This document shows positions 1 through 47,912 of a stretch of DNA of 47,912 nucleotides, piece after piece. The DNA lies in the IMG/VR virus record IMGVR_UViG_3300050026_000188; one strand, written 5' to 3'. Numbering within the stretch: the stretch's first letter is position 1; the number at the start of each line of letters is the position of its first letter. The translations under genes and the position numbers were made by a program. The DNA comes from a virus. Under the pieces are notes generated by a model that saw nothing but the letters and a program-made list of their open reading frames with translations, was not told where the DNA came from and made no database searches.

Positions 1-77
1 GAGATCGCCCCCGCCGTGTTGAGGATGCTTGTCCCATCCGGCTTCACGCCTCCGAGCACGGTCGAAGTCGCCGTGGG
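1..77. repeat. Terminal direct repeat: bases 1..77 are identical to 47836..47912
   Basis: Exact 77-nt identity by direct comparison of the first and last lines of the window; a large minus-strand ORF reads through the junction in frame. Confidence 0.9.
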
Positions 78-23697: not shown

Positions 23698-24090
23698 ATG
23701 ACTGTTACCTCAGTGCTTGACGATGTAAAAGGCTGGTTCGCGAAGGTTTTCAAGAATGCACCTTCCGCCGAAGTTACGGCCCTCTCTGCCCTCAATACCG
23801 TTGCCCCCGAAGCGGAGATCTTGCTTGATCTGATCGATCCGGCCGCTGGCGCAATCGCAACCCCGATCATTACCGAAGTGCAGGCTGATCTCGGTACCGT
23901 CGCGAACCTGCTCAAGTCGGGCAATACCGTCAATCTCGGTACCTTCCTGGCTGCGATCAAGAGCAATTTGAGCCTACTGCTCACCGAGGGCCATATCACG
24001 GACCCGGCAAGCGTCACGAAGGCGACGGGGATCGTTGGCGCGATCTCTGGCGTTATTACCAGCCTGCAGAATCAGTACGCAACGGCGTAA
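23698..24090 (+). CDS. Hypothetical protein
   Basis: 130-aa ORF with AGGAGA-type RBS region. Confidence 0.25.
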   Translation: MTVTSVLDDVKGWFAKVFKNAPSAEVTALSALNTVAPEAEILLDLIDPAAGAIATPIITEVQADLGTVANLLKSGNTVNLGTFLAAIKSNLSLLLTEGHITDPASVTKATGIVGAISGVITSLQNQYATA

Positions 24091-24791
24091 TGAGCTATCA
24101 GTCTGAGTTTCGAGCAACGGCCGTCGCTCTCGCGGCGGTCTTTTGCTTGGGCTCTATCGGTTATCGCGTCCTGACCGCCCCCGAGATCCCCGATCTCGCG
24201 CCCACGGTTACAAAGCTCAACGCAACCATTACCGCGGCGTCTACGGCGCTGCAGGGGCTTCCGGCCGTTCTGACGCACGTTCAAACTACCAGCGACGCGG
24301 CTACGGGCGTCCTACGCTCAGCATCGCCCGTTGTGGCGAGCTTTGCGGGGACCGCCGGCAAGCTCAACGATACAATCGATCTCACATCCCATCGGCTAAA
24401 CGATCTCTGCCCGCTCCCCCCCGACGTAAGGCCGTGCGGAACGCTCGCCGACACTAACCGCACCCTGGCGACGTTGCGGGGCACATCAGGGCAGGTAGAG
24501 CGTTCGCTCATCCTCTTCAACCAGCATGAGGGGGATCTCTTCACTCAGGAGAGCGCCGCTTACGCTGGGATGAATAAATCAGTCTTGGATTTTGACGCGC
24601 TGGTATCCGATCCGGATCTCAAGGCGAACATCCACAACTCAGCGATTATTACCGGGAATTTTGCGGCCATATCGACCGAAGGAAAAGACTGGCTCCATCT
24701 GAGGCTCTATCCGACAAAGAAAAAGGGGTTTGTGTCGGGCTTTGAGGCAACTGGGGACGCAGCGAAACATTGGATGCCGCCCCTCTTTTAG
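24090..24791 (+). CDS. Membrane-anchored hypothetical protein
   Basis: N-terminal hydrophobic anchor (AVALAAVFCLGSIGY) followed by a soluble domain; no recognised motif. Confidence 0.3.
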   Translation: MSYQSEFRATAVALAAVFCLGSIGYRVLTAPEIPDLAPTVTKLNATITAASTALQGLPAVLTHVQTTSDAATGVLRSASPVVASFAGTAGKLNDTIDLTSHRLNDLCPLPPDVRPCGTLADTNRTLATLRGTSGQVERSLILFNQHEGDLFTQESAAYAGMNKSVLDFDALVSDPDLKANIHNSAIITGNFAAISTEGKDWLHLRLYPTKKKGFVSGFEATGDAAKHWMPPLF

Positions 24792-25041
24792 GGCACTCGG
24801 GGCGCTCTTCGTCGGCATCCCATATCAGGCCGCAAGTATCACAAACGATCTGATCAAGTTGCCGGCGAGCTTTACAGTTTGGCAGGTTCAAAGCTGGTAT
24901 CCCCCTCACGTTCTAAATAACTAGGCTCAAAACTCTCATCTTCCCATTCCGCATACGTCTGCCCAGTCACATCTAAGAACGCTCGCCAGGCAGCCTCTTC
25001 GCGTGCGTATTTTTGCTTGAGGTACCAATATTGGCGATTGC

Positions 25042-25290
25042 TCACTGTTTGAACGAACTACCCGTCTCACTGCCGTCAACCGTGGCGTCGGCGACAACCC
25101 ATACAACAACGCCGCCCGGCTTAGTCACCCGGTATAACTCGCGGGCGAGAGCTTCAAAATTCCAAGAAAATCCCTTGTATTCGCGGAGGTTGTCATACGG
25201 AGGGGACGTAACTGTTAGCTGTACACTCTCGCTCGCTACAAGGCAACTGAGAGCCATCACGTTATCGCAGTTATATAGTTGCATAGCCAA
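25042..25290 (-). pseudogene. Truncated beta-class N6/N4 DNA methyltransferase (N-terminal fragment only)
   Basis: 82 aa carrying motif IV (TSPPY) and the following YRVTKPGGVVVWV block, then a stop; no downstream FxGxG motif; start overlaps the polymerase stop. Confidence 0.5.
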
Positions 25291-27265
25291 TGTCCCTCAA
25301 TATCGCGTGGCAATTGTCGAGATACCAGGCGTAGTCAATGTCATCCGGCAGTGAGTCCGGCAGAGTCAGGCAGGGCTTAGCGCCGTAGCTGAGGCTTACG
25401 GTGTTGCCGTTAGTGTTGTAGATGATTGAGCCGGGCGCGGATGTCGAGTAGTAGAATCTGATCACTTTGCCCATATACTCGGGCCGTTGCGGGGTGAAGC
25501 AAGATGCGTAAGCGCTCCCCGCATCCGCCAGCACGCCCGCCCGCTGCCATTTACGGCCGCTCTTCACCCATCCGTTAGCCTGCAGAGTGGCCGTCATATC
25601 GCGTATCTTTGTGCCCTTGAGCGGTCCCTCGCCCCAGAGCTTCACAGCGCCGCCGGCAACCTTGCGGACTGTCACAAATTTGCGGATATCCCGGCTCGCG
25701 GCGAGCGTATAAAGGATCGGCGTCCCCTTGCTGAGATATTCGGCCACGGCATCTGAGCAGATCTCCACATCGGGATTCTTCTTTTCGACCAGGCCGGCCT
25801 TTGAGTATTCCCCTTTGCGCTTTACCTTCCCGTCGATCTTCACTGCAAAGTAATTATTTACGTCTTTGGAATAAATGGCCTTGTAAGTATTGCTTTCCAT
25901 CTCCAAACCCGTGCTCCGCTCCCACTCTTCGATGAGCCGATCGCTCGAAGCGAGCAGATGGCGCGGGCAAAATGCCACAAACCCGTCAGTATTCGCAGAC
26001 ACAACAGGGATGCCGTTCGATTCATGCCACTCAATCAGCATCATGAGCGCAAGTTGCCCGGTGATGGTGGTTTGAATGAGCATCTCAGGGGCGAAAAGGA
26101 TGGAGAACGGGCTCCCAGTCTTCCCGAAAACGCCGTTGATCATAATCTTGCCGCCCTCGTTCTCTACCTCAGCCTTCGTGTATTCGGGAGTTCCTTTAGT
26201 AAGTGTTTTCTGTAGAGCCTTCGCCTTCAGACGCTCATCTTTGATCGCTGCATACTCATGCAGGAACGCGGGGCCGAGAGCCTTCGGATATTTTCCGGAG
26301 TTCAAGATCAGACTGGGATAGTAGCTGGCAACATCCGAATCCCTGAGTACAGCGTTTTCGTCGCTTCGGTACGCCACGCGCTTCTCGGAGGAGTGCAGGC
26401 CGCCGATCCCGAGCCGGTAGCGCGACGAGCCGATTTGGATCTCAAGTCCGTCTAGCTGGGCGGGCATGACGACGGAGCCACTCGGGCCAAGCCGGAATAC
26501 GGCCTCTCTGACCAGGGAGAACGCCTGCATGAGAGGTGCCGTCTGAAATTTGAGGAAGGATGGCGGCTCGTATTTGAAGACCAGATTCCAGTCAATCTCA
26601 GGCTTATAAATCTTCTGACCTAGAGCCTGCTCACAGCGGCGCTTTAGAACGGCTTCGGCAAGCTGAGCATCTGACTTACTTCGCAGATCAATCCCGTAGC
26701 GCTTGCTCAACTCCTGGCGCTGGTGGAGTTGGGGCGCGAGTGCATCGAATAGCCCCTCTAGGACTGAGAGATCATTTCCGCAATAGTCGTCTACTTCGGC
26801 GATCTCCGCAGGCGTGAGGTATTGATCCGGCGAGTAGGGAAGATCTCGCATCGTCTTGCAGTGGATTCGACCTGCGTACTGCTTTTGGCTGCCCGCGCCT
26901 GGCGCTACTTCCATCACATCGATGTGATCAGCCGGCCGCCACTCGGGGAGCCCTAACTCCCAGGGCTTTAGCTTCTGGACAATGATTTGATCATTGAGCC
27001 ATTTGAGTTGATCTGGGGTATAGCCCGAGAGCGCCGCGGCGATCATCGGTACATCGTAGTAATTGCCGTTGAAGCTCACGGTTGTAAAGATCTGGAATAG
27101 CGTGGTGATGCTCGCAACCGCCGCGGGCTCTAACCTCTCGCCCGCCCTCAGCGCGAACGTAAAGCATTCGCCGCCCTGAGGACGGAACTTGAGAAGCCAA
27201 AAGTTAGGAAAACATTCTGTGTCGTAAAATGCTACCGGCTTACCTGATGGTGGAGTGGGGATCAT
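25271..27265 (-). CDS. DNA polymerase, family B, with 3'-5' exonuclease
   Basis: Exo motifs FYDTE, NGNYYD, YCGND; Pol motif A DVASYYPSLI, motif B KIMINGVFGKTG, motif C variant SANTDG. Confidence 0.75.
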   Translation of the reverse strand: MIPTPPSGKPVAFYDTECFPNFWLLKFRPQGGECFTFALRAGERLEPAAVASITTLFQIFTTVSFNGNYYDVPMIAAALSGYTPDQLKWLNDQIIVQKLKPWELGLPEWRPADHIDVMEVAPGAGSQKQYAGRIHCKTMRDLPYSPDQYLTPAEIAEVDDYCGNDLSVLEGLFDALAPQLHQRQELSKRYGIDLRSKSDAQLAEAVLKRRCEQALGQKIYKPEIDWNLVFKYEPPSFLKFQTAPLMQAFSLVREAVFRLGPSGSVVMPAQLDGLEIQIGSSRYRLGIGGLHSSEKRVAYRSDENAVLRDSDVASYYPSLILNSGKYPKALGPAFLHEYAAIKDERLKAKALQKTLTKGTPEYTKAEVENEGGKIMINGVFGKTGSPFSILFAPEMLIQTTITGQLALMMLIEWHESNGIPVVSANTDGFVAFCPRHLLASSDRLIEEWERSTGLEMESNTYKAIYSKDVNNYFAVKIDGKVKRKGEYSKAGLVEKKNPDVEICSDAVAEYLSKGTPILYTLAASRDIRKFVTVRKVAGGAVKLWGEGPLKGTKIRDMTATLQANGWVKSGRKWQRAGVLADAGSAYASCFTPQRPEYMGKVIRFYYSTSAPGSIIYNTNGNTVSLSYGAKPCLTLPDSLPDDIDYAWYLDNCHAILRDIGYATI

Positions 27266-28104
27266 TACGCAGCGGCCGCGGCCTTCGGTTTGATCTCTTC
27301 AACGTAGAGATAAAGATCTAGCAAGAGCTTGCGATCAACTTCGATAAACTCCCCGTACTCTTCATCAGCGAGCATCCCGGCCACGTCTTCGAGGGCGGCA
27401 GTAACGCGCCGGATGAGTTCGGGATCGCGAGCAACCGGCTTCGGAACTTTGACCGCGCCCGGTTTCTTTACGTCGCTCCGCTCGATAGTGCCCTCTTTTT
27501 TCAAAACCTCATGCTGCTGAGCTTTGCTGAGCTTCGCGATTGCAACGGCCGCCGACTCTTTGACCCGGCCGGATTTCACCGCTTCGGCGGCTTCCTCTGA
27601 CAGAGAGATAAGCGCGATGCGGTCCTTTACGAACTTGTGGGCGGCCTTGAGTTCGCCCTCAGTCTTCGCGGTCGGGAAGTAGACGCCGGCGATCTGCTCA
27701 TCCGTCATCGCGTAGACGTTGAGAAGCCGCTTGATGTTGTGAGCGTCGTCAAGGGGAGTTGCGGGATTGCGAAAGCGATTCTCTGAGATGTTGATCAGAA
27801 ACGCTTCGCCTTCGCTGCATTGCACGTAGGTACAACGAACCTGCAGTTTGACCGGCGCGAGCCCGCGCTTGTTGATCTCGCTGATCGCACGCCAGCGAGA
27901 GAAGCCGGCAACCAGGACGGCCGCGCCGCCATCGTTGCGGATGACAACCGGCGTATGCTGCCCGCGCGCCAGGATATCGGTAATGAGCCATTCAATCTCA
28001 GGCTTTTCGTGACGACCGTTGAGATCGGGCTTGATCGTAATGTCTTCAGGGTAGAAGCGATACTCGGAGGTTCGCTTATGCTCAACTGCAAACTGTACTG
28101 CCAT
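27265..28104 (-). CDS. ParB-like nuclease-domain protein
   Basis: N-terminal TPVVIRNDGGAAVLVAGFSRWRAI block resembling the ParB N-terminal domain. Confidence 0.6.
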   Translation of the reverse strand: MAVQFAVEHKRTSEYRFYPEDITIKPDLNGRHEKPEIEWLITDILARGQHTPVVIRNDGGAAVLVAGFSRWRAISEINKRGLAPVKLQVRCTYVQCSEGEAFLINISENRFRNPATPLDDAHNIKRLLNVYAMTDEQIAGVYFPTAKTEGELKAAHKFVKDRIALISLSEEAAEAVKSGRVKESAAVAIAKLSKAQQHEVLKKEGTIERSDVKKPGAVKVPKPVARDPELIRRVTAALEDVAGMLADEEYGEFIEVDRKLLLDLYLYVEEIKPKAAAAA

Positions 28105-29413: not shown

Positions 29414-30544
29414 TCAACCCTTCCCAAATACTCTGCGTGCAGCAGTATTATTCTGTGGCACCAGTTTTACAGCGCCAGGAATAATTGAAGAGTAATTATT
29501 ACTGACGGCTTCGTCAAGTCCTAATCGATCCGCCTGAGCTGGCGAGACAACACCGGGTTTGCTAAGGTTTTTTCCCAGCATTTGACCGATAGTTATGAGT
29601 TGATCAATGGGAATATTCCACTGGCGGCGGCCCTTGCCCGGCTCTGCGACGTAATAGGGCACTGACGCGCCCGCTCTCAGGTTGGCGAGCGTCAACGCCC
29701 TAAGTCCTTCAACGCGAGCCCCTAGCCTCTCGTATGCCCTTTCGAGCATCCTGAGTTCAAGGCCGGCAGCCTGGGGCGTGAGGTTATGAGGTTGGCGAGC
29801 CGTTGCAAATTCCGCGTCACTGTATGCGGCTCTCTGCAGAGCTTCGCACGCATGGCGGCCGGGACAATGGCAGCACTCGGGATTTGTGGAAGCCATCGGC
29901 TTAGGGCTATACGCCTGGGTTGCCGCGGCCTGCATCGCGATCATATGGGCGCGGGCAGTGACTTCGCCCCATATGTAATTGTGCGTTCGGACGGGCTCGC
30001 CGCGGTGATAGCAGCGGGGTTGGATTACGGTAAAGCTCACTGAGATGTTGGCAGGATCTCCCAGTAGAGCAGGCTTCAACGTCTCGATAATTCCGGACGC
30101 ATAGAGCAAACCTTGCTTGTTGAAATACTCATCTACAAACCCGTGACCATACTTGTAGTCGAATACCTCAAGGTGCATTCGAGCGAGATCGAACGTCCAA
30201 ACGTCAGGAGTGCCGCCGCATTCCTCATGGATCTCGGGAATGCTAACCCACTCTTCGATATGAAGCATCCCCGGCGTGATTGGATTGATCCGGCGTGCAA
30301 CCGTCTCCGCGATGAGTTCCGCGCCGTCGAGCATCTCGCCGGTGATGATTACACCGTTGGGGGCGCTTGAGCCCTCAGAGTACAACCGGCCTGCCAACAT
30401 CTCAGTACCAACCCAATGGGCCGCGGTCCCTTCAACGCTCTCGGGGGTATCGTCTTGGGAAAACTCCTTATTCATTTTCGGCCATTGGGCACACTTAGAC
30501 CAGGCCGCCGCGCCAGAAGGGGGAAGAAACGCATGTACAGTCAT
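29414..30544 (-). CDS. PD-(D/E)xK nuclease, DUF2800-like (Cas4/RecB-like, Cys cluster)
   Basis: N-terminal FLPPSGAAAWSKC, internal ECCHCPGRHAC cysteine cluster; adjacency to the SSB-like gene. Confidence 0.55.
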   Translation of the reverse strand: MTVHAFLPPSGAAAWSKCAQWPKMNKEFSQDDTPESVEGTAAHWVGTEMLAGRLYSEGSSAPNGVIITGEMLDGAELIAETVARRINPITPGMLHIEEWVSIPEIHEECGGTPDVWTFDLARMHLEVFDYKYGHGFVDEYFNKQGLLYASGIIETLKPALLGDPANISVSFTVIQPRCYHRGEPVRTHNYIWGEVTARAHMIAMQAAATQAYSPKPMASTNPECCHCPGRHACEALQRAAYSDAEFATARQPHNLTPQAAGLELRMLERAYERLGARVEGLRALTLANLRAGASVPYYVAEPGKGRRQWNIPIDQLITIGQMLGKNLSKPGVVSPAQADRLGLDEAVSNNYSSIIPGAVKLVPQNNTAARRVFGKG

Positions 30545-35037: not shown

Positions 35038-37401
35038 GTGAATCAATTCATCGTTTACCGAAGGTCCGACAAGGCTCCCGTTGACTACCGCACGGGCAAG
35101 CCCGCGAACGCTCACGATTCCTCAAATTGGACAGACGTAGCAACAGCATCCAGTGTTGCTCAGGCATGGGGCGCTGAGTGGGGCATCGGTTTTGTTCTTA
35201 CGGAGCAATCGCAGATCGCTGTGATCGATGTGGACGGTTGCCGCAATCCGCAGACTGGGGAAATAAGCCTCATCGCTCAAACATTGATCACCATGCTTGC
35301 TGGTGCTTATGTTGAGATCAGCATCGGTGGGAAGGGCATCCACATCTGGTTTCGTTATAGCGGGGCGATGCCCCCGCACGCGAGCAGGGCGGCCGGAATT
35401 GGCGAGTTTTATCACAAGGATAGATACATCGCGATTGGCGCTCCTTATGCGGCTCCCAGCTTCACAAACGGAAGTCTGGGGACGGACCATACTGTATCTC
35501 TTCCATCTCTGATTGCTACGTTCTTTCCCCCTGACGCTTCGAGCGTCGGTGAGAGCGAATGGACTACCGAGCCCCGCGAAGATTGGAACGGGCCGCTAGA
35601 GGATAGCGAGTTGTTGCGCCGCGCCATGCAGAGCCGCTCGACGGCAAGCGCCTTCGGCGGTAAGGCGTCCTTTGCGGACTTGTGGCTCGCTAACGAGTCT
35701 GTACTCGCTGTGAGCTACCCTGACGCCAACGGGAGAGCCTACGACGCGAGCGCCGCCGATGCTGCCCTGGCTCAGCACTTGAGCTTTTGGACGGGTGGAG
35801 ATTGCGCTCGTATCGAGCGATTGATGAGGGGCTCAAAGCTAGTCAGGGAGAAGTGGGAACGTAACGCAGACGTGTACTCCGGTCCGGGTATGGGATATAT
35901 CCCCCGCACCATCCTGGGCGCTTGTGGTCGGCAGCTTGAGGTACTCTCTGATGCCGCCAGCGCCCCCGTACCGCCCCCGCCGGGCACGGTGAGCCATGCG
36001 CCCACCCCCAGGGGCGGCGATGGCTTCCTGGACTCTGAGAAGCAACAGGCTCACTTTGGGCAGTGCGTCTATGTGAGCGGCCAAAACAGAGCCTTAGTGC
36101 CTGACGGCTCGCTAATGAAGCCCGACGCCTTCCGCGTGCGATACGGCGGTTTCAATTTCAATCTCGATACTCAGAATATGAAGACAACCCGGGACGCCTG
36201 GGAAGCGTGGACGCAAAACCAGGTTTACAAATGCACTGAGGTAGACGGGATATGCTTCAAGCCCAATCTACCGGCGCGGAGCATCGTACACGCCAACGGT
36301 CAGACCTTTATCAACACCTTTATCCCCGTCGACATTCGGCGCGTTGTGGGCGACGCCAGTCCCTTCCTCAACCATCTCGCGAAGGTACTGCCCGATGAGC
36401 GCGACCGTACGATTTTGCTCTCGTATATGGCGGCGTGCGTCCAACATCAGGGAATCAAATTCCAATGGGCTCCCTTGCTGCAGGGCGTTGAGGGGAACGG
36501 CAAGACGCTCTTTGCGCGATGCGTAGAGCAGGCCGTTGGTACTCGATACACCTATTGGCCGAAGGCAGCGAAGATCTCCGCAACCTTCAATGCATGGATG
36601 GCTAACAAAGTCTTCTATGCGGTCGAAGATATTTATGTTCCCGACTCGAAGCGCGAGATCCTCGAAGACTTGAAGCCGATGATCACGGGGGACAAAATCG
36701 AGATCGAAGCGAAGGGCATCGATCAATTCATCTCGGATATTTGCGGTAACTTTATGTTCAATTCCAACCATCTTGACGCGATCCGGAAGACTGAGAATGA
36801 TCGCCGCTTTTGCGTGCTCTTTAGCGCTCAGCAACAGTCAAGCGACCTGAGACGGGACGGACTAACGGAGAGTTACTTTGTAGCCTTGTACAACTGGCTT
36901 AGAGAAGAGGGCTACGCGATAGTCAACGAGCTTCTATTTACCTACGCGATCCCCGCGGAGTTGAATCCCGCCGGCGACTGCCAGCGAGCGCCGGTCACCA
37001 CCAGCACCTCTAAGGCCATCAAAGACGGCCTGGGCAGCCTTGAGCAAGAGATCGCGGAAGCCGTCGCCCAGGGCTTGCCGGGCTTCTCTGGTGATTGGAT
37101 ATCTACAACCTGGCTTGAGCGCCTTCTAGAGCGGATGCGGCTAAACAAGATATCACACTCGAAGCGTAAACAGATCCTTGAGCAGATGGGTTATATCTAC
37201 CATCCCGCGCTCACTGACGGCCGCCCCAACAATCCCGTGCTGCCCGACAACACAAAGCCGCGGCTCTTCGTACTCGCCGGATCCCTGACTTCGCAGATCC
37301 CGACGGCCGCGGCAGCCACGAAGCATTATGAAGCCGCCAACGCAAATAAGAGCCCCGTAGGGCTCCCGTTCGCTGCTCATCAGTTTGGGCGCTCTAACTA
37401 G
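35038..37401 (+). CDS. DNA primase-helicase (PrimPol-like N-terminus + SF3 helicase)
   Basis: IAVIDVDG primase-type DxD motif; Walker A GVEGNGKTLF and Walker B FYAVEDI; GTG start with AAGGGG upstream. Confidence 0.75.
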   Translation: MNQFIVYRRSDKAPVDYRTGKPANAHDSSNWTDVATASSVAQAWGAEWGIGFVLTEQSQIAVIDVDGCRNPQTGEISLIAQTLITMLAGAYVEISIGGKGIHIWFRYSGAMPPHASRAAGIGEFYHKDRYIAIGAPYAAPSFTNGSLGTDHTVSLPSLIATFFPPDASSVGESEWTTEPREDWNGPLEDSELLRRAMQSRSTASAFGGKASFADLWLANESVLAVSYPDANGRAYDASAADAALAQHLSFWTGGDCARIERLMRGSKLVREKWERNADVYSGPGMGYIPRTILGACGRQLEVLSDAASAPVPPPPGTVSHAPTPRGGDGFLDSEKQQAHFGQCVYVSGQNRALVPDGSLMKPDAFRVRYGGFNFNLDTQNMKTTRDAWEAWTQNQVYKCTEVDGICFKPNLPARSIVHANGQTFINTFIPVDIRRVVGDASPFLNHLAKVLPDERDRTILLSYMAACVQHQGIKFQWAPLLQGVEGNGKTLFARCVEQAVGTRYTYWPKAAKISATFNAWMANKVFYAVEDIYVPDSKREILEDLKPMITGDKIEIEAKGIDQFISDICGNFMFNSNHLDAIRKTENDRRFCVLFSAQQQSSDLRRDGLTESYFVALYNWLREEGYAIVNELLFTYAIPAELNPAGDCQRAPVTTSTSKAIKDGLGSLEQEIAEAVAQGLPGFSGDWISTTWLERLLERMRLNKISHSKRKQILEQMGYIYHPALTDGRPNNPVLPDNTKPRLFVLAGSLTSQIPTAAAATKHYEAANANKSPVGLPFAAHQFGRSN

Positions 37402-47200: not shown

Positions 47201-47912
47201 TGTTGCTGGCGTTGGAGGCGTAAGTTTCAGCATTCGATTGAGCCGTGGAAGCTGCGCCAGAAGCATCATAGGCCGTTGATGCGGTAAACGCCGCAGTACC
47301 AAATACGCCCCCAGCCGCAGTCGTCAGATAGGAAAGCGTCGTTACGGTTGGCGCAACCGGAGTGTAGGTCAACGCGGTAGTCACCTGGCCAGAGGTCATG
47401 CCGGTTAGGTTCGCCATACTGAAGGTCGGTGCCGCCGTGAAAGTCGGAGCCGCGCTGCTGCCGGTGAAGTTGCCAAAAACGGTGTTCGCCGCCTGATTCT
47501 TGAGTGTTGCCGTGACCGTTCCGCTGGTTGTTACCGCTGTACTCGGAGTCGAACTGTCCACCGTGCCATCGCCCGTGAAGGTCACGCTGCTTACGCTTCC
47601 CGTAGATGTTCCGCACGTTGGGCAAGAGATCGCTCCCGTTGCCGCGACTACAATTGGGAGTGTTCCGCTCAGTCCAGCCGAACCAACCGAGCCGATGGGA
47701 ATGCCAGTCGGCAGATAACTCACTCCAATGGTTCCAGTGTTGATGTGGCTGGCATTCTGCGCGTAAGTCTCGGCATTGCTCTGAGCCGTTGCCGCCGCAC
47801 CGGAAGCATCCGCTCCCACACTTGCCGCTGTTGCCGAGATCGCCCCCGCCGTGTTGAGGATGCTTGTCCCATCCGGCTTCACGCCTCCGAGCACGGTCGA
47901 AGTCGCCGTGGG
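44232..47912 (-). CDS. C-terminal part of the giant secreted tail-fibre-like protein (N-terminal part at 907..1)
   Basis: ORF is open to the window edge and matches 1..77; A..S..A..S fibre-type repeats (TAQSNAETYA.NAS twice); several N.GIGTTSP motifs. Confidence 0.6.
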   Translation of the reverse strand, partial: PTATSTVLGGVKPDGTSILNTAGAISATAASVGADASGAAATAQSNAETYAQNASHINTGTIGVSYLPTGIPIGSVGSAGLSGTLPIVVAATGAISCPTCGTSTGSVSSVTFTGDGTVDSSTPSTAVTTSGTVTATLKNQAANTVFGNFTGSSAAPTFTAAPTFSMANLTGMTSGQVTTALTYTPVAPTVTTLSYLTTAAGGVFGTAAFTASTAYDASGAASTAQSNAETYASNASNISSGTVGYSYLPIGTSASHVPSGGVITAAGPTGSATAIPVITYNAAGQLTAVTTATPTVAVVNGVSYGSSPSTNTVPVVTGTNTVTYEAVPNAALANSVTTVNGQNCALGGTCTISASAGTITVGTTTIAGGTTGHIEYNNSGVLGELSTYGSGSVLLGSGAVGSAAYTASTAYATAAQGTKADNAGAVTGAVKSNGSATFSQAACGDLSNGASGCSTTVGTAATHAATDFQLALTNPVTGPGSATANDAVTFTGTGDQVQDSGVAIYTIPSSNLNLGGGLPLTYGGASSIAIGNSSTLASSTGTVNIAIGTSNLLGASGSFNIAIGAEAIGYGGIETGSNNIGLGDSALYNLTSGGNNIGIGNNTLATNSSGSYSTGIGSGALQFTTTGNGNTAAGYLAGTLLPTGYHNITGSYGTFLGQNTQASANGNTNEIVVGSTAVGAGSNTAVIGNAAVTDEYFGSAAGLATLHGAAFTGNSSTATNLSTNGTANQVWGMNSGATAQGWQTPGSTMTYPGANTIGVANSGNTAWRTPLYSDITALFGSGSCSGALMSSGGCTALPSVGTWGALNYPTWTTGTPFVKMTAAGTFALDTNTYGTFTLPSLTSGSVLFSNGSTIAQDNSNFFWDATNHRLGIGTTGPSGQLSLGNPSTDTNLRTYGISDQGVFNFYQAQNFPTAGIYARILDIVSGSQNTLSQIRFLTQNDGLSGPTEKVRIDNNGNVGIGTTSPVQALDLGTGALRTGGLTIAGNPTVFANPIVINGQTPPAFIYLDSTYNVLRIGAQSTYTTLAFELPGSPAYEDVMQLTATGLNPAPAFDNTINLGVTGQRWKSLWVGTGGGIFQGNVGIGTTSPAALLSVGSSSQFQVSSTGVSSAGAGSTDLNGSGVPEAHCLADGTGCPGGTLYNAAGTQLTSAHTVMGLTTLSGGAATVTFSGSAIFTSSSSYACMTSATVSTINLNALGVTYTSGSSVTFSDDGGLGSDAIRYICIGN

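Follow-up and report, generated by a model that had tools for sequence, protein, structure and literature searches.

Directly behind the DNA polymerase gene of an environmental phage (IMG/VR record IMGVR_UViG_3300050026_000188) lies a short minus-strand open reading frame that carries a methyltransferase motif and ends soon after it, followed by further coding-like sequence in another frame. What this pair of frames is, where each part came from, and whether either can still do anything is the question raised by the locus. The whole stretch of DNA analysed, 47,912 nucleotides in length, is referred to here as the window, and its relevant features are collected in Table 1. The evidence makes it very probable that 24872..25290(-) is a non-functional chimera composed of a methyltransferase 5' fragment and an HNH endonuclease 3' fragment, which is dispensable and still eroding.

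Table 1. Coordinates of the features discussed, with the basis or location of each.
Feature	Position	Strand	Basis or remark
Small Cys-rich ORF	24649..24909	-	tblastn; homologues of relatives
HNH_3 homing-endonuclease 3' remnant (predicted), 57 codons	24872..25045	-	identity to intact HNH in L060, L065
Downstream CGTATG copy, right deletion end	24952..24957	-	inside HNH remnant
Methyltransferase N-terminal remnant ORF	25042..25290	-	PF01555, phrog_67, tblastn against full-length relatives
Methyltransferase 5' patch, ~236 bp	25046..25281	-	DNA alignment and blastn against L060, L063
Upstream CGTATG copy, left deletion end	25194..25199	-	inside motif IV Pro-Tyr-Asp codons
DNA polymerase, 664 aa	25271..27265	-	phrog_1252, E 1.3e-175
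Shine-Dalgarno-like GAGGGA, putative	25293..25298	-	8 nt upstream of ATG 25284, read from sequence
D12-class N6-adenine methyltransferase (predicted), 234 aa	33905..34609	+	FVGAG, DPPY, PF02086, phrog_56

The genome and the site

The 77 bases at the start of the window (1..77) are repeated exactly at its end (47836..47912); the window is thus a circularly closed, complete phage genome of ~47.8 kb, in which no second methyltransferase half can be hidden. The site lies where the replication module gives way to a convergent tail module, in a short, variable stretch whose gene content differs among close relatives. The polymerase is ~42% identical to siphophage proteins annotated 'DNA polymerase B region', and the final 14 nt of its gene overlap the start of the methyltransferase stub. 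A near-identity DNA search with 24000..26000 gave no match among GenBank phages, and the only match to the polymerase among genome contigs was one distant (37%) Caulobacteraceae MAG, which provides neither a host clue nor a prophage copy. A promoter and terminator scan of the minus strand of 24000..25700 returned nothing relevant.

The replication module also contains a 787-aa protein with an NrS-1-polymerase-like helix-bundle domain and DUF5906, of the primase-polymerase/helicase type (35038..37401, plus strand), and a DUF2800 protein (29414..30544, minus strand). In several relatives the polymerase gene itself is interrupted by inserts of ~700 bp, which are of two kinds: an HNH/AP2-like endonuclease (..IDRIDNDKGYSPENCQWASH..) after residue ~364 in L172, L030, L031 and L173, and a GIY-YIG endonuclease (..IYGIRNLTNGKLYVGKT..) after residue ~475 in L168.

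Anatomy of the methyltransferase stub

The stub can be read from a TTG at 25290 (82 aa) or from a better ATG at 25284 (80 aa), the latter being the more likely start, and it closes with a TGA at 25044..25042. Its product is MAMQLYNCDNVMALSCLVASESVQLTVTSPPYDNLREYKGFSWNFEALARELYRVTKPGGVVVWVVADATVDGSETGSSFKQ. The GAGGGA preceding the ATG would function as a ribosome-binding site; the same TGAGGGA...ATG arrangement is present in the relatives L060 and L063, and in relatives it serves an HNH gene. Motif IV is present as TSPPY at residues 28-32 (SPPY codons at 25206..25195) and is followed by YRVTKPGGVVVWV.

The preliminary description had recognized in the 82-aa frame the SPPY motif and the following block of beta-class methyltransferases, and the profile and alignment searches agree. 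The stub matches positions 1-58 of the 221 in PF01555 (N6_N4_Mtase; E 6.8e-5) with 23.4 bits, which falls short of the Pfam gathering threshold of 26.7 bits because only about a quarter of the model is present. It also matches phrog_67 'DNA methyltransferase' (E 1.3e-10), and 939 homologues were found at E <= 0.001 in a large protein collection, a likeness far beyond chance. Full-length, 268-aa enzymes of the same family are encoded on the related phage contigs L010 and L013, have DPFTGSGTT near the C-terminus and match solved beta-class enzymes; that of L010 scores 145.5 bits on PF01555 over positions 1-220. When the two are aligned to the whole window by tblastn, residues 14-88 of 268 are recovered with 62-67% identity (E 7e-28), and the alignment stops on the last sense codon of the stub before the TGA (codon 88), so that ~30% of the protein is kept. 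The family is rarely found in this state: ~76 of the 79 IMG/VR loci with the closest N-terminal matches to the stub are full length, which marks the truncation as an exception.

The hallmark of beta-class enzymes is their motif order, with motif IV ahead of the AdoMet-binding motif I (PMC10406627). It had been claimed that the stub ends before any FxGxG, and indeed the frame contains none. None of the six frames of the circular, complete genome contains motif I (FxGxG) of a beta-class enzyme, and the remaining ~180 methyltransferase residues find no match in any frame of the window (tblastn, next best E 0.18). The central target-recognition region is likewise absent from the stub, family homology being over at residue 88 of 268. 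Left with the catalytic loop of motif IV and deprived of both the target-recognition part and the cofactor pocket, the stub would be unable to methylate DNA. It derives from PF01555 and lacks three defining features of that family, which makes it a remnant and not a member in the functional sense. SPPY is the N4-cytosine-type variant seen in N4CMT, while CcrM has DPPY (PMC10406627); the original methylation specificity is not readable from the stub.

The downstream frame

The 57-codon frame that follows reads VSNRQYWYLKQKYAREEAAW... and lies in the -1 frame relative to the stub, its GTG overlapping the TGA of the latter (GTGA). It matches nothing in Pfam, NCBIfam or PHROG, and a search of 5.8 billion proteins returned no homologue beyond its own lineage, with the exception of one 94-aa gene call. 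This protein has an additional N-terminal part (...GEHVHHKDGNVRNPSPTNLLVLGEAIHNAV) before the shared SNRQYWYLKQ..., and HVHHKDGN...N...H is found upstream of the shared part. The call was made on L060/L061, a relative with 78-83% DNA identity to the window and a polymerase 79% identical; there the full frame comprises 131 aa and begins at an ATG overlapping the stop of the polymerase. PF13392 (HNH_3) matches the L060 protein over residues 28-70 with 34.2 bits against a cut-off of 24.8. L065, a second relative (polymerase 76% identical), has an HNH_3 gene of 131 aa at the corresponding position, and its product shares 72% identity with that of L060. Aligned with residues 72-130 of the L060 HNH, the 57-aa remnant shows 86% identity; with the L065 HNH the value is 78%, and for the C-terminal tails of the 131-aa HNH_3 proteins at this site in relatives it is 78-90%. 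In L063 (polymerase 77% identical), the first ~8 HNH codons (MPPFSGGV) are joined to the last ~12.

Since an intact HNH gene follows the polymerase in L060/L061 and L065 and both its ends are left in L063, a free-standing HNH_3 homing endonuclease was in all likelihood the ancestral occupant of the site. Its catalytic motif (residues 28-70 in L060) lies upstream of the joint at residue ~73 and is gone from the remnant; this 57-codon tail, the last 45% of the gene, is not expected to cut DNA. The preliminary description had rightly noted a coding-like downstream frame that does not restore the enzyme; the frame exists, in another phase, and it is best read as the C-terminal end of an HNH_3 protein and not as decayed methyltransferase, an identification that is new here. 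A programmed -1 frameshift joining the two frames is unlikely: the GTGA is not preceded by an X_XXY_YYZ slippery site, and the product would be without both catalytic cores.

Joints of the patch and a model for its origin

The window and L060/L063 are homologous at the DNA level along the polymerase gene as far as ~25281 and again from exactly 25045 onward (GTGAGCAATCGCC). The ~236 bp between these points have no counterpart in the closest relatives and stand in place of ~215 bp of L060 sequence, namely HNH codons 2 to ~73 with the catalytic motif. The last 12 nt of the polymerase gene differ at 6 positions from both L060 and L063, between which a single difference is seen, and this divergent end places the left joint just after the shared ATGC; both joints are located only to within a few bases. 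The TGA of the stub consists of HNH bases (G/TGA/GC).

These observations suggest the following history. An ancestral HNH_3 gene would have lain directly after the polymerase gene, with its Shine-Dalgarno sequence and ATG overlapping the polymerase stop. In the lineage of this phage, the 5' 215 bp of that gene were probably swapped for a ~236-bp stretch of 5'-terminal sequence from a beta-class methyltransferase gene, with the left joint at the shared start codon (ATGC) and the right joint at GTGAGC, HNH codon ~74. The methyltransferase Q-L-Y-N codons would have arrived with the patch and by chance give the polymerase its stop at the old position, and the methyltransferase frame would enter the HNH gene one base out of frame and stop at once. 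The probable product, assuming that the stub is translated, is an 80-aa peptide that has motif IV and neither target-recognition region nor AdoMet-binding motif I. The view that the gene beside the polymerase is degraded thus holds, as it is truncated and cannot be restored, with the refinement that a recombination joint, and not accumulated point mutations, accounts for its state.

No donor of the fragment emerged from the 79 IMG/VR loci whose N-termini match most closely: the best is 73% identical, and none adjoins this type of polymerase. A full-length gene at this position, which the preliminary description had proposed to seek in related genomes, is present at none of 36 IMG/VR loci, 42 metagenome loci and four closer relatives; the family itself does occur, on the other side of the polymerase. 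In the relatives that carry it (5 loci: L010 528..1334, L013 1924..2820, L147, L149 and L168), it is found only upstream and never downstream, as a full-length gene whose stop overlaps the polymerase start. In the window, the position upstream of the polymerase is held by a ParB-like gene (27265..28104). The exact 32-nt polymerase/methyltransferase joint had no match in metagenome contigs, a collection evidently without samples of this lineage.

A history in two steps has somewhat less than an even chance of being correct. According to this reading, the HNH start codon first received an entire methyltransferase gene, which relied on the HNH signals for its expression, and a single later deletion took the 3' two thirds of that gene along with HNH codons 1 to ~73. 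The fragment starts exactly at a functional-looking Shine-Dalgarno sequence and ATG and aligns to its relatives from residue 2 onward, a precision easier to explain if the whole gene was once selected, and deletions are clearly frequent in the region. However, no intermediate was seen in ~30 contigs of the lineage, 36 IMG/VR relatives and 42 metagenome relatives, and the similar sizes of the replaced (215 bp) and replacing (236 bp) segments would have to be a coincidence. The two-step reading differs from a direct swap in history only; the present state of the locus is the same in both.

A segregating deletion and continuing decay

A second allele of the site (L007 and others) is found on at least 19 contigs that are otherwise >99.9% identical to the window and are shorter by 242 bp; they include NCBI QGNH01000053.1 and JGI samples numbered next to those that carry the window allele. 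The missing segment extends from the motif IV tyrosine onward through the first 23 codons of the HNH tail, which amounts to most of both stubs, and what is left encodes an in-frame 56-aa chimera of both frames (P0123). The 242 bp were probably lost by slippage or by microhomology-mediated deletion between the two CGTATG copies that mark the deletion ends (Table 1). That both alleles are common speaks against a need for either stub.

Decay is also apparent further downstream, in the small Cys-rich frame. It has the motif C-x10-11-C-x2-C...C, its N-terminal ~40-65 residues are conserved in ~25 relatives, and its start is likely a TTG after GAGGGGG. Its homologues in relatives comprise 107-128 aa, and its 3' part is antisense to a convergent 233-aa tail-module gene, with an overlap of 143 bp; it looks 3'-truncated. 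One contig (L057) has a further deletion of ~28 bp near 24806..24824, inside this frame, and the independent contigs L002, L005 and L006 end at 24831/24832. Breaks within 24805..24832 suggest that the population is heterogeneous here, or that assemblies break within the small Cys-rich gene. In L063, almost nothing is left between the polymerase and the convergent tail genes. Taken together, the L057 deletion and the contig breaks, the shortened Cys-rich frame and the emptied L063 site show that the stretch after the polymerase is being whittled away.

Could one of the short products nevertheless have a role? A function as a small protein, such as interference with dimeric beta-class methyltransferases of the host, is very unlikely for either the 80-aa peptide or the 56-aa chimera. 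A good Shine-Dalgarno sequence and an ATG are kept, and an open frame survives the 242-bp deletion. However, an in-frame outcome of the deletion has a 1-in-3 probability by chance, the two alleles share only 30 N-terminal residues and yet both are common (11 versus at least 19 contigs), no conservation is seen outside this one lineage, and there are relatives without any gene here (L063). Slightly less probable still is the more specific proposal that the 80-aa stub is kept for a peptide action, by poisoning dimeric host beta-class methyltransferases (CcrM-like) or as a decoy, with the 242-bp-deleted allele as its loss-of-function variant.

Sequencing error or split enzyme

That the gene is really intact, and its stop the product of a sequencing or assembly error or of a simple frameshift or nonsense mutation, has next to no probability. 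In-frame stops or frameshifts do interrupt some other family members (L047/L048, L049, L079), but in 6 contigs (5 JGI samples and one Logan/SRA run) the 2 kb compared are 100% identical to the window, and identity across at least six independent assemblies argues that the stub is neither a sequencing error nor a frameshift. All stub copies found are identical, and a 71-aa version of the protein, as called by JGI, is present on 11 contigs. Moreover, no downstream frame has methyltransferase homology, and from the stop of the stub to the next conserved gene there is room for only ~135-170 bp (~50 codons), whereas the missing part would need ~555 bp (~185 codons). Reading through the TGA yields 'AIANIGTSSKNTHAKRLPGERS*', which by eye has no convincing likeness to the expected 'ALFFKE.GFNLHDTMIY' (tblastn at E 10 was empty). 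A single-base correction, named in the preliminary description as the result that would overturn the pseudogene reading, is ruled out by this shortage of room, the lack of C-terminal homology and the agreement of the assemblies.

The notion of a split enzyme, in which the N-terminal stub works with a separately encoded C-terminal half, has two-frame versions of the family elsewhere in its favour (81 + 182 aa, L047/L048) and is no less improbable, as the complete circular genome holds no C-terminal half, which refutes a phage-encoded partner, and the co-circulating allele has lost motif IV itself. The 81-aa and 182-aa pair, with one or more in-frame stops between, is found on unrelated contigs (L047 3001..3816 and L048 2663..3478), and an 82-aa truncation of the same family occurs on 7 contigs, likewise unrelated (L043-L046, 3001..3249). 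Several of the shortened proteins (P0038, P0047, P0028 and P0062) end near the same residue; a shared break site was considered and rejected, since these are different events, namely an in-frame stop with continuing homology, a frameshift and a split gene.

The second methyltransferase of the genome

An intact Dam-family enzyme had been reported elsewhere in the same genome (Table 1). The protein does look intact: it has FVGAG (motif I) at residues 30-34 and DPPY (motif IV) at residues 158-161, that is, an alpha-type motif order, it reaches 40.5 bits against PF02086 (cut-off 22), and it matches phrog_56 over residues 3-229. The family name fares less well, as the score against the NCBIfam Dam model TIGR00571 is 38.8 bits and the cut-off 114.85; with a score so far below it, the label 'D12 class' is justified and that of Dam (GATC) specificity is not.

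Annotation and significance

The main relevance of these results lies in annotation. In the JGI source, the stub is named 'site-specific DNA-methyltransferase (adenine-specific)' and the 57-aa frame 'DNA-binding XRE family transcriptional regulator'; both names are misleading, neither can be right, and both are corrected here. For this phage the tally should be a single methyltransferase in place of two, and no endonuclease at the site. The earlier reading of a degraded gene is supported, and is sharpened by the HNH identity and by the recombination joint. The locus also illustrates, cleanly and on a small scale, the gain and loss of sequence in the stretch that follows a phage polymerase gene and forms a hot spot for homing endonucleases: environmental data reveal the ancestral gene, its independent deletion, a chimeric replacement and a further deletion that is still segregating.

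Comparison with known systems

Beta-class enzymes of the PF01555 family (TTHA0409-like 2zie, M.PvuII, N4CMT, CcrM, M.MboIIA and M.RsrI) share with the stub motif IV, which in the stub is TSPPY, and the block of the next beta-strand. Unlike them, the stub has neither a target-recognition region nor motif I, which in its relatives takes the form DPFxGSGTT. The 57-aa frame shares homology and a position after the polymerase with the free-standing HNH_3 (PF13392) endonucleases of phages, but it has lost the HNH motif and no endonuclease family is detectable in it. The clustering of homing endonucleases around polymerase genes is familiar, and the HNH-type and GIY-YIG-type inserts in the polymerase genes of relatives are the usual neighbourhood of HNH_3 homing elements.

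Among tailed phages it is ordinary to find chimeric remnants at module borders, and deletions with microhomology at their ends. The site in the window is variable in the same way as the mosaic joints at such borders and likewise shows deletions flanked by microhomology. The gene remnant it holds is genuine, fully explained and ordinary for a hot spot of mobile elements, and leaves current understanding unchallenged. Compared with the usual remnants in tailed phages there is nothing unusual about it; both parents of the joint and the segregating deletion are directly visible here.
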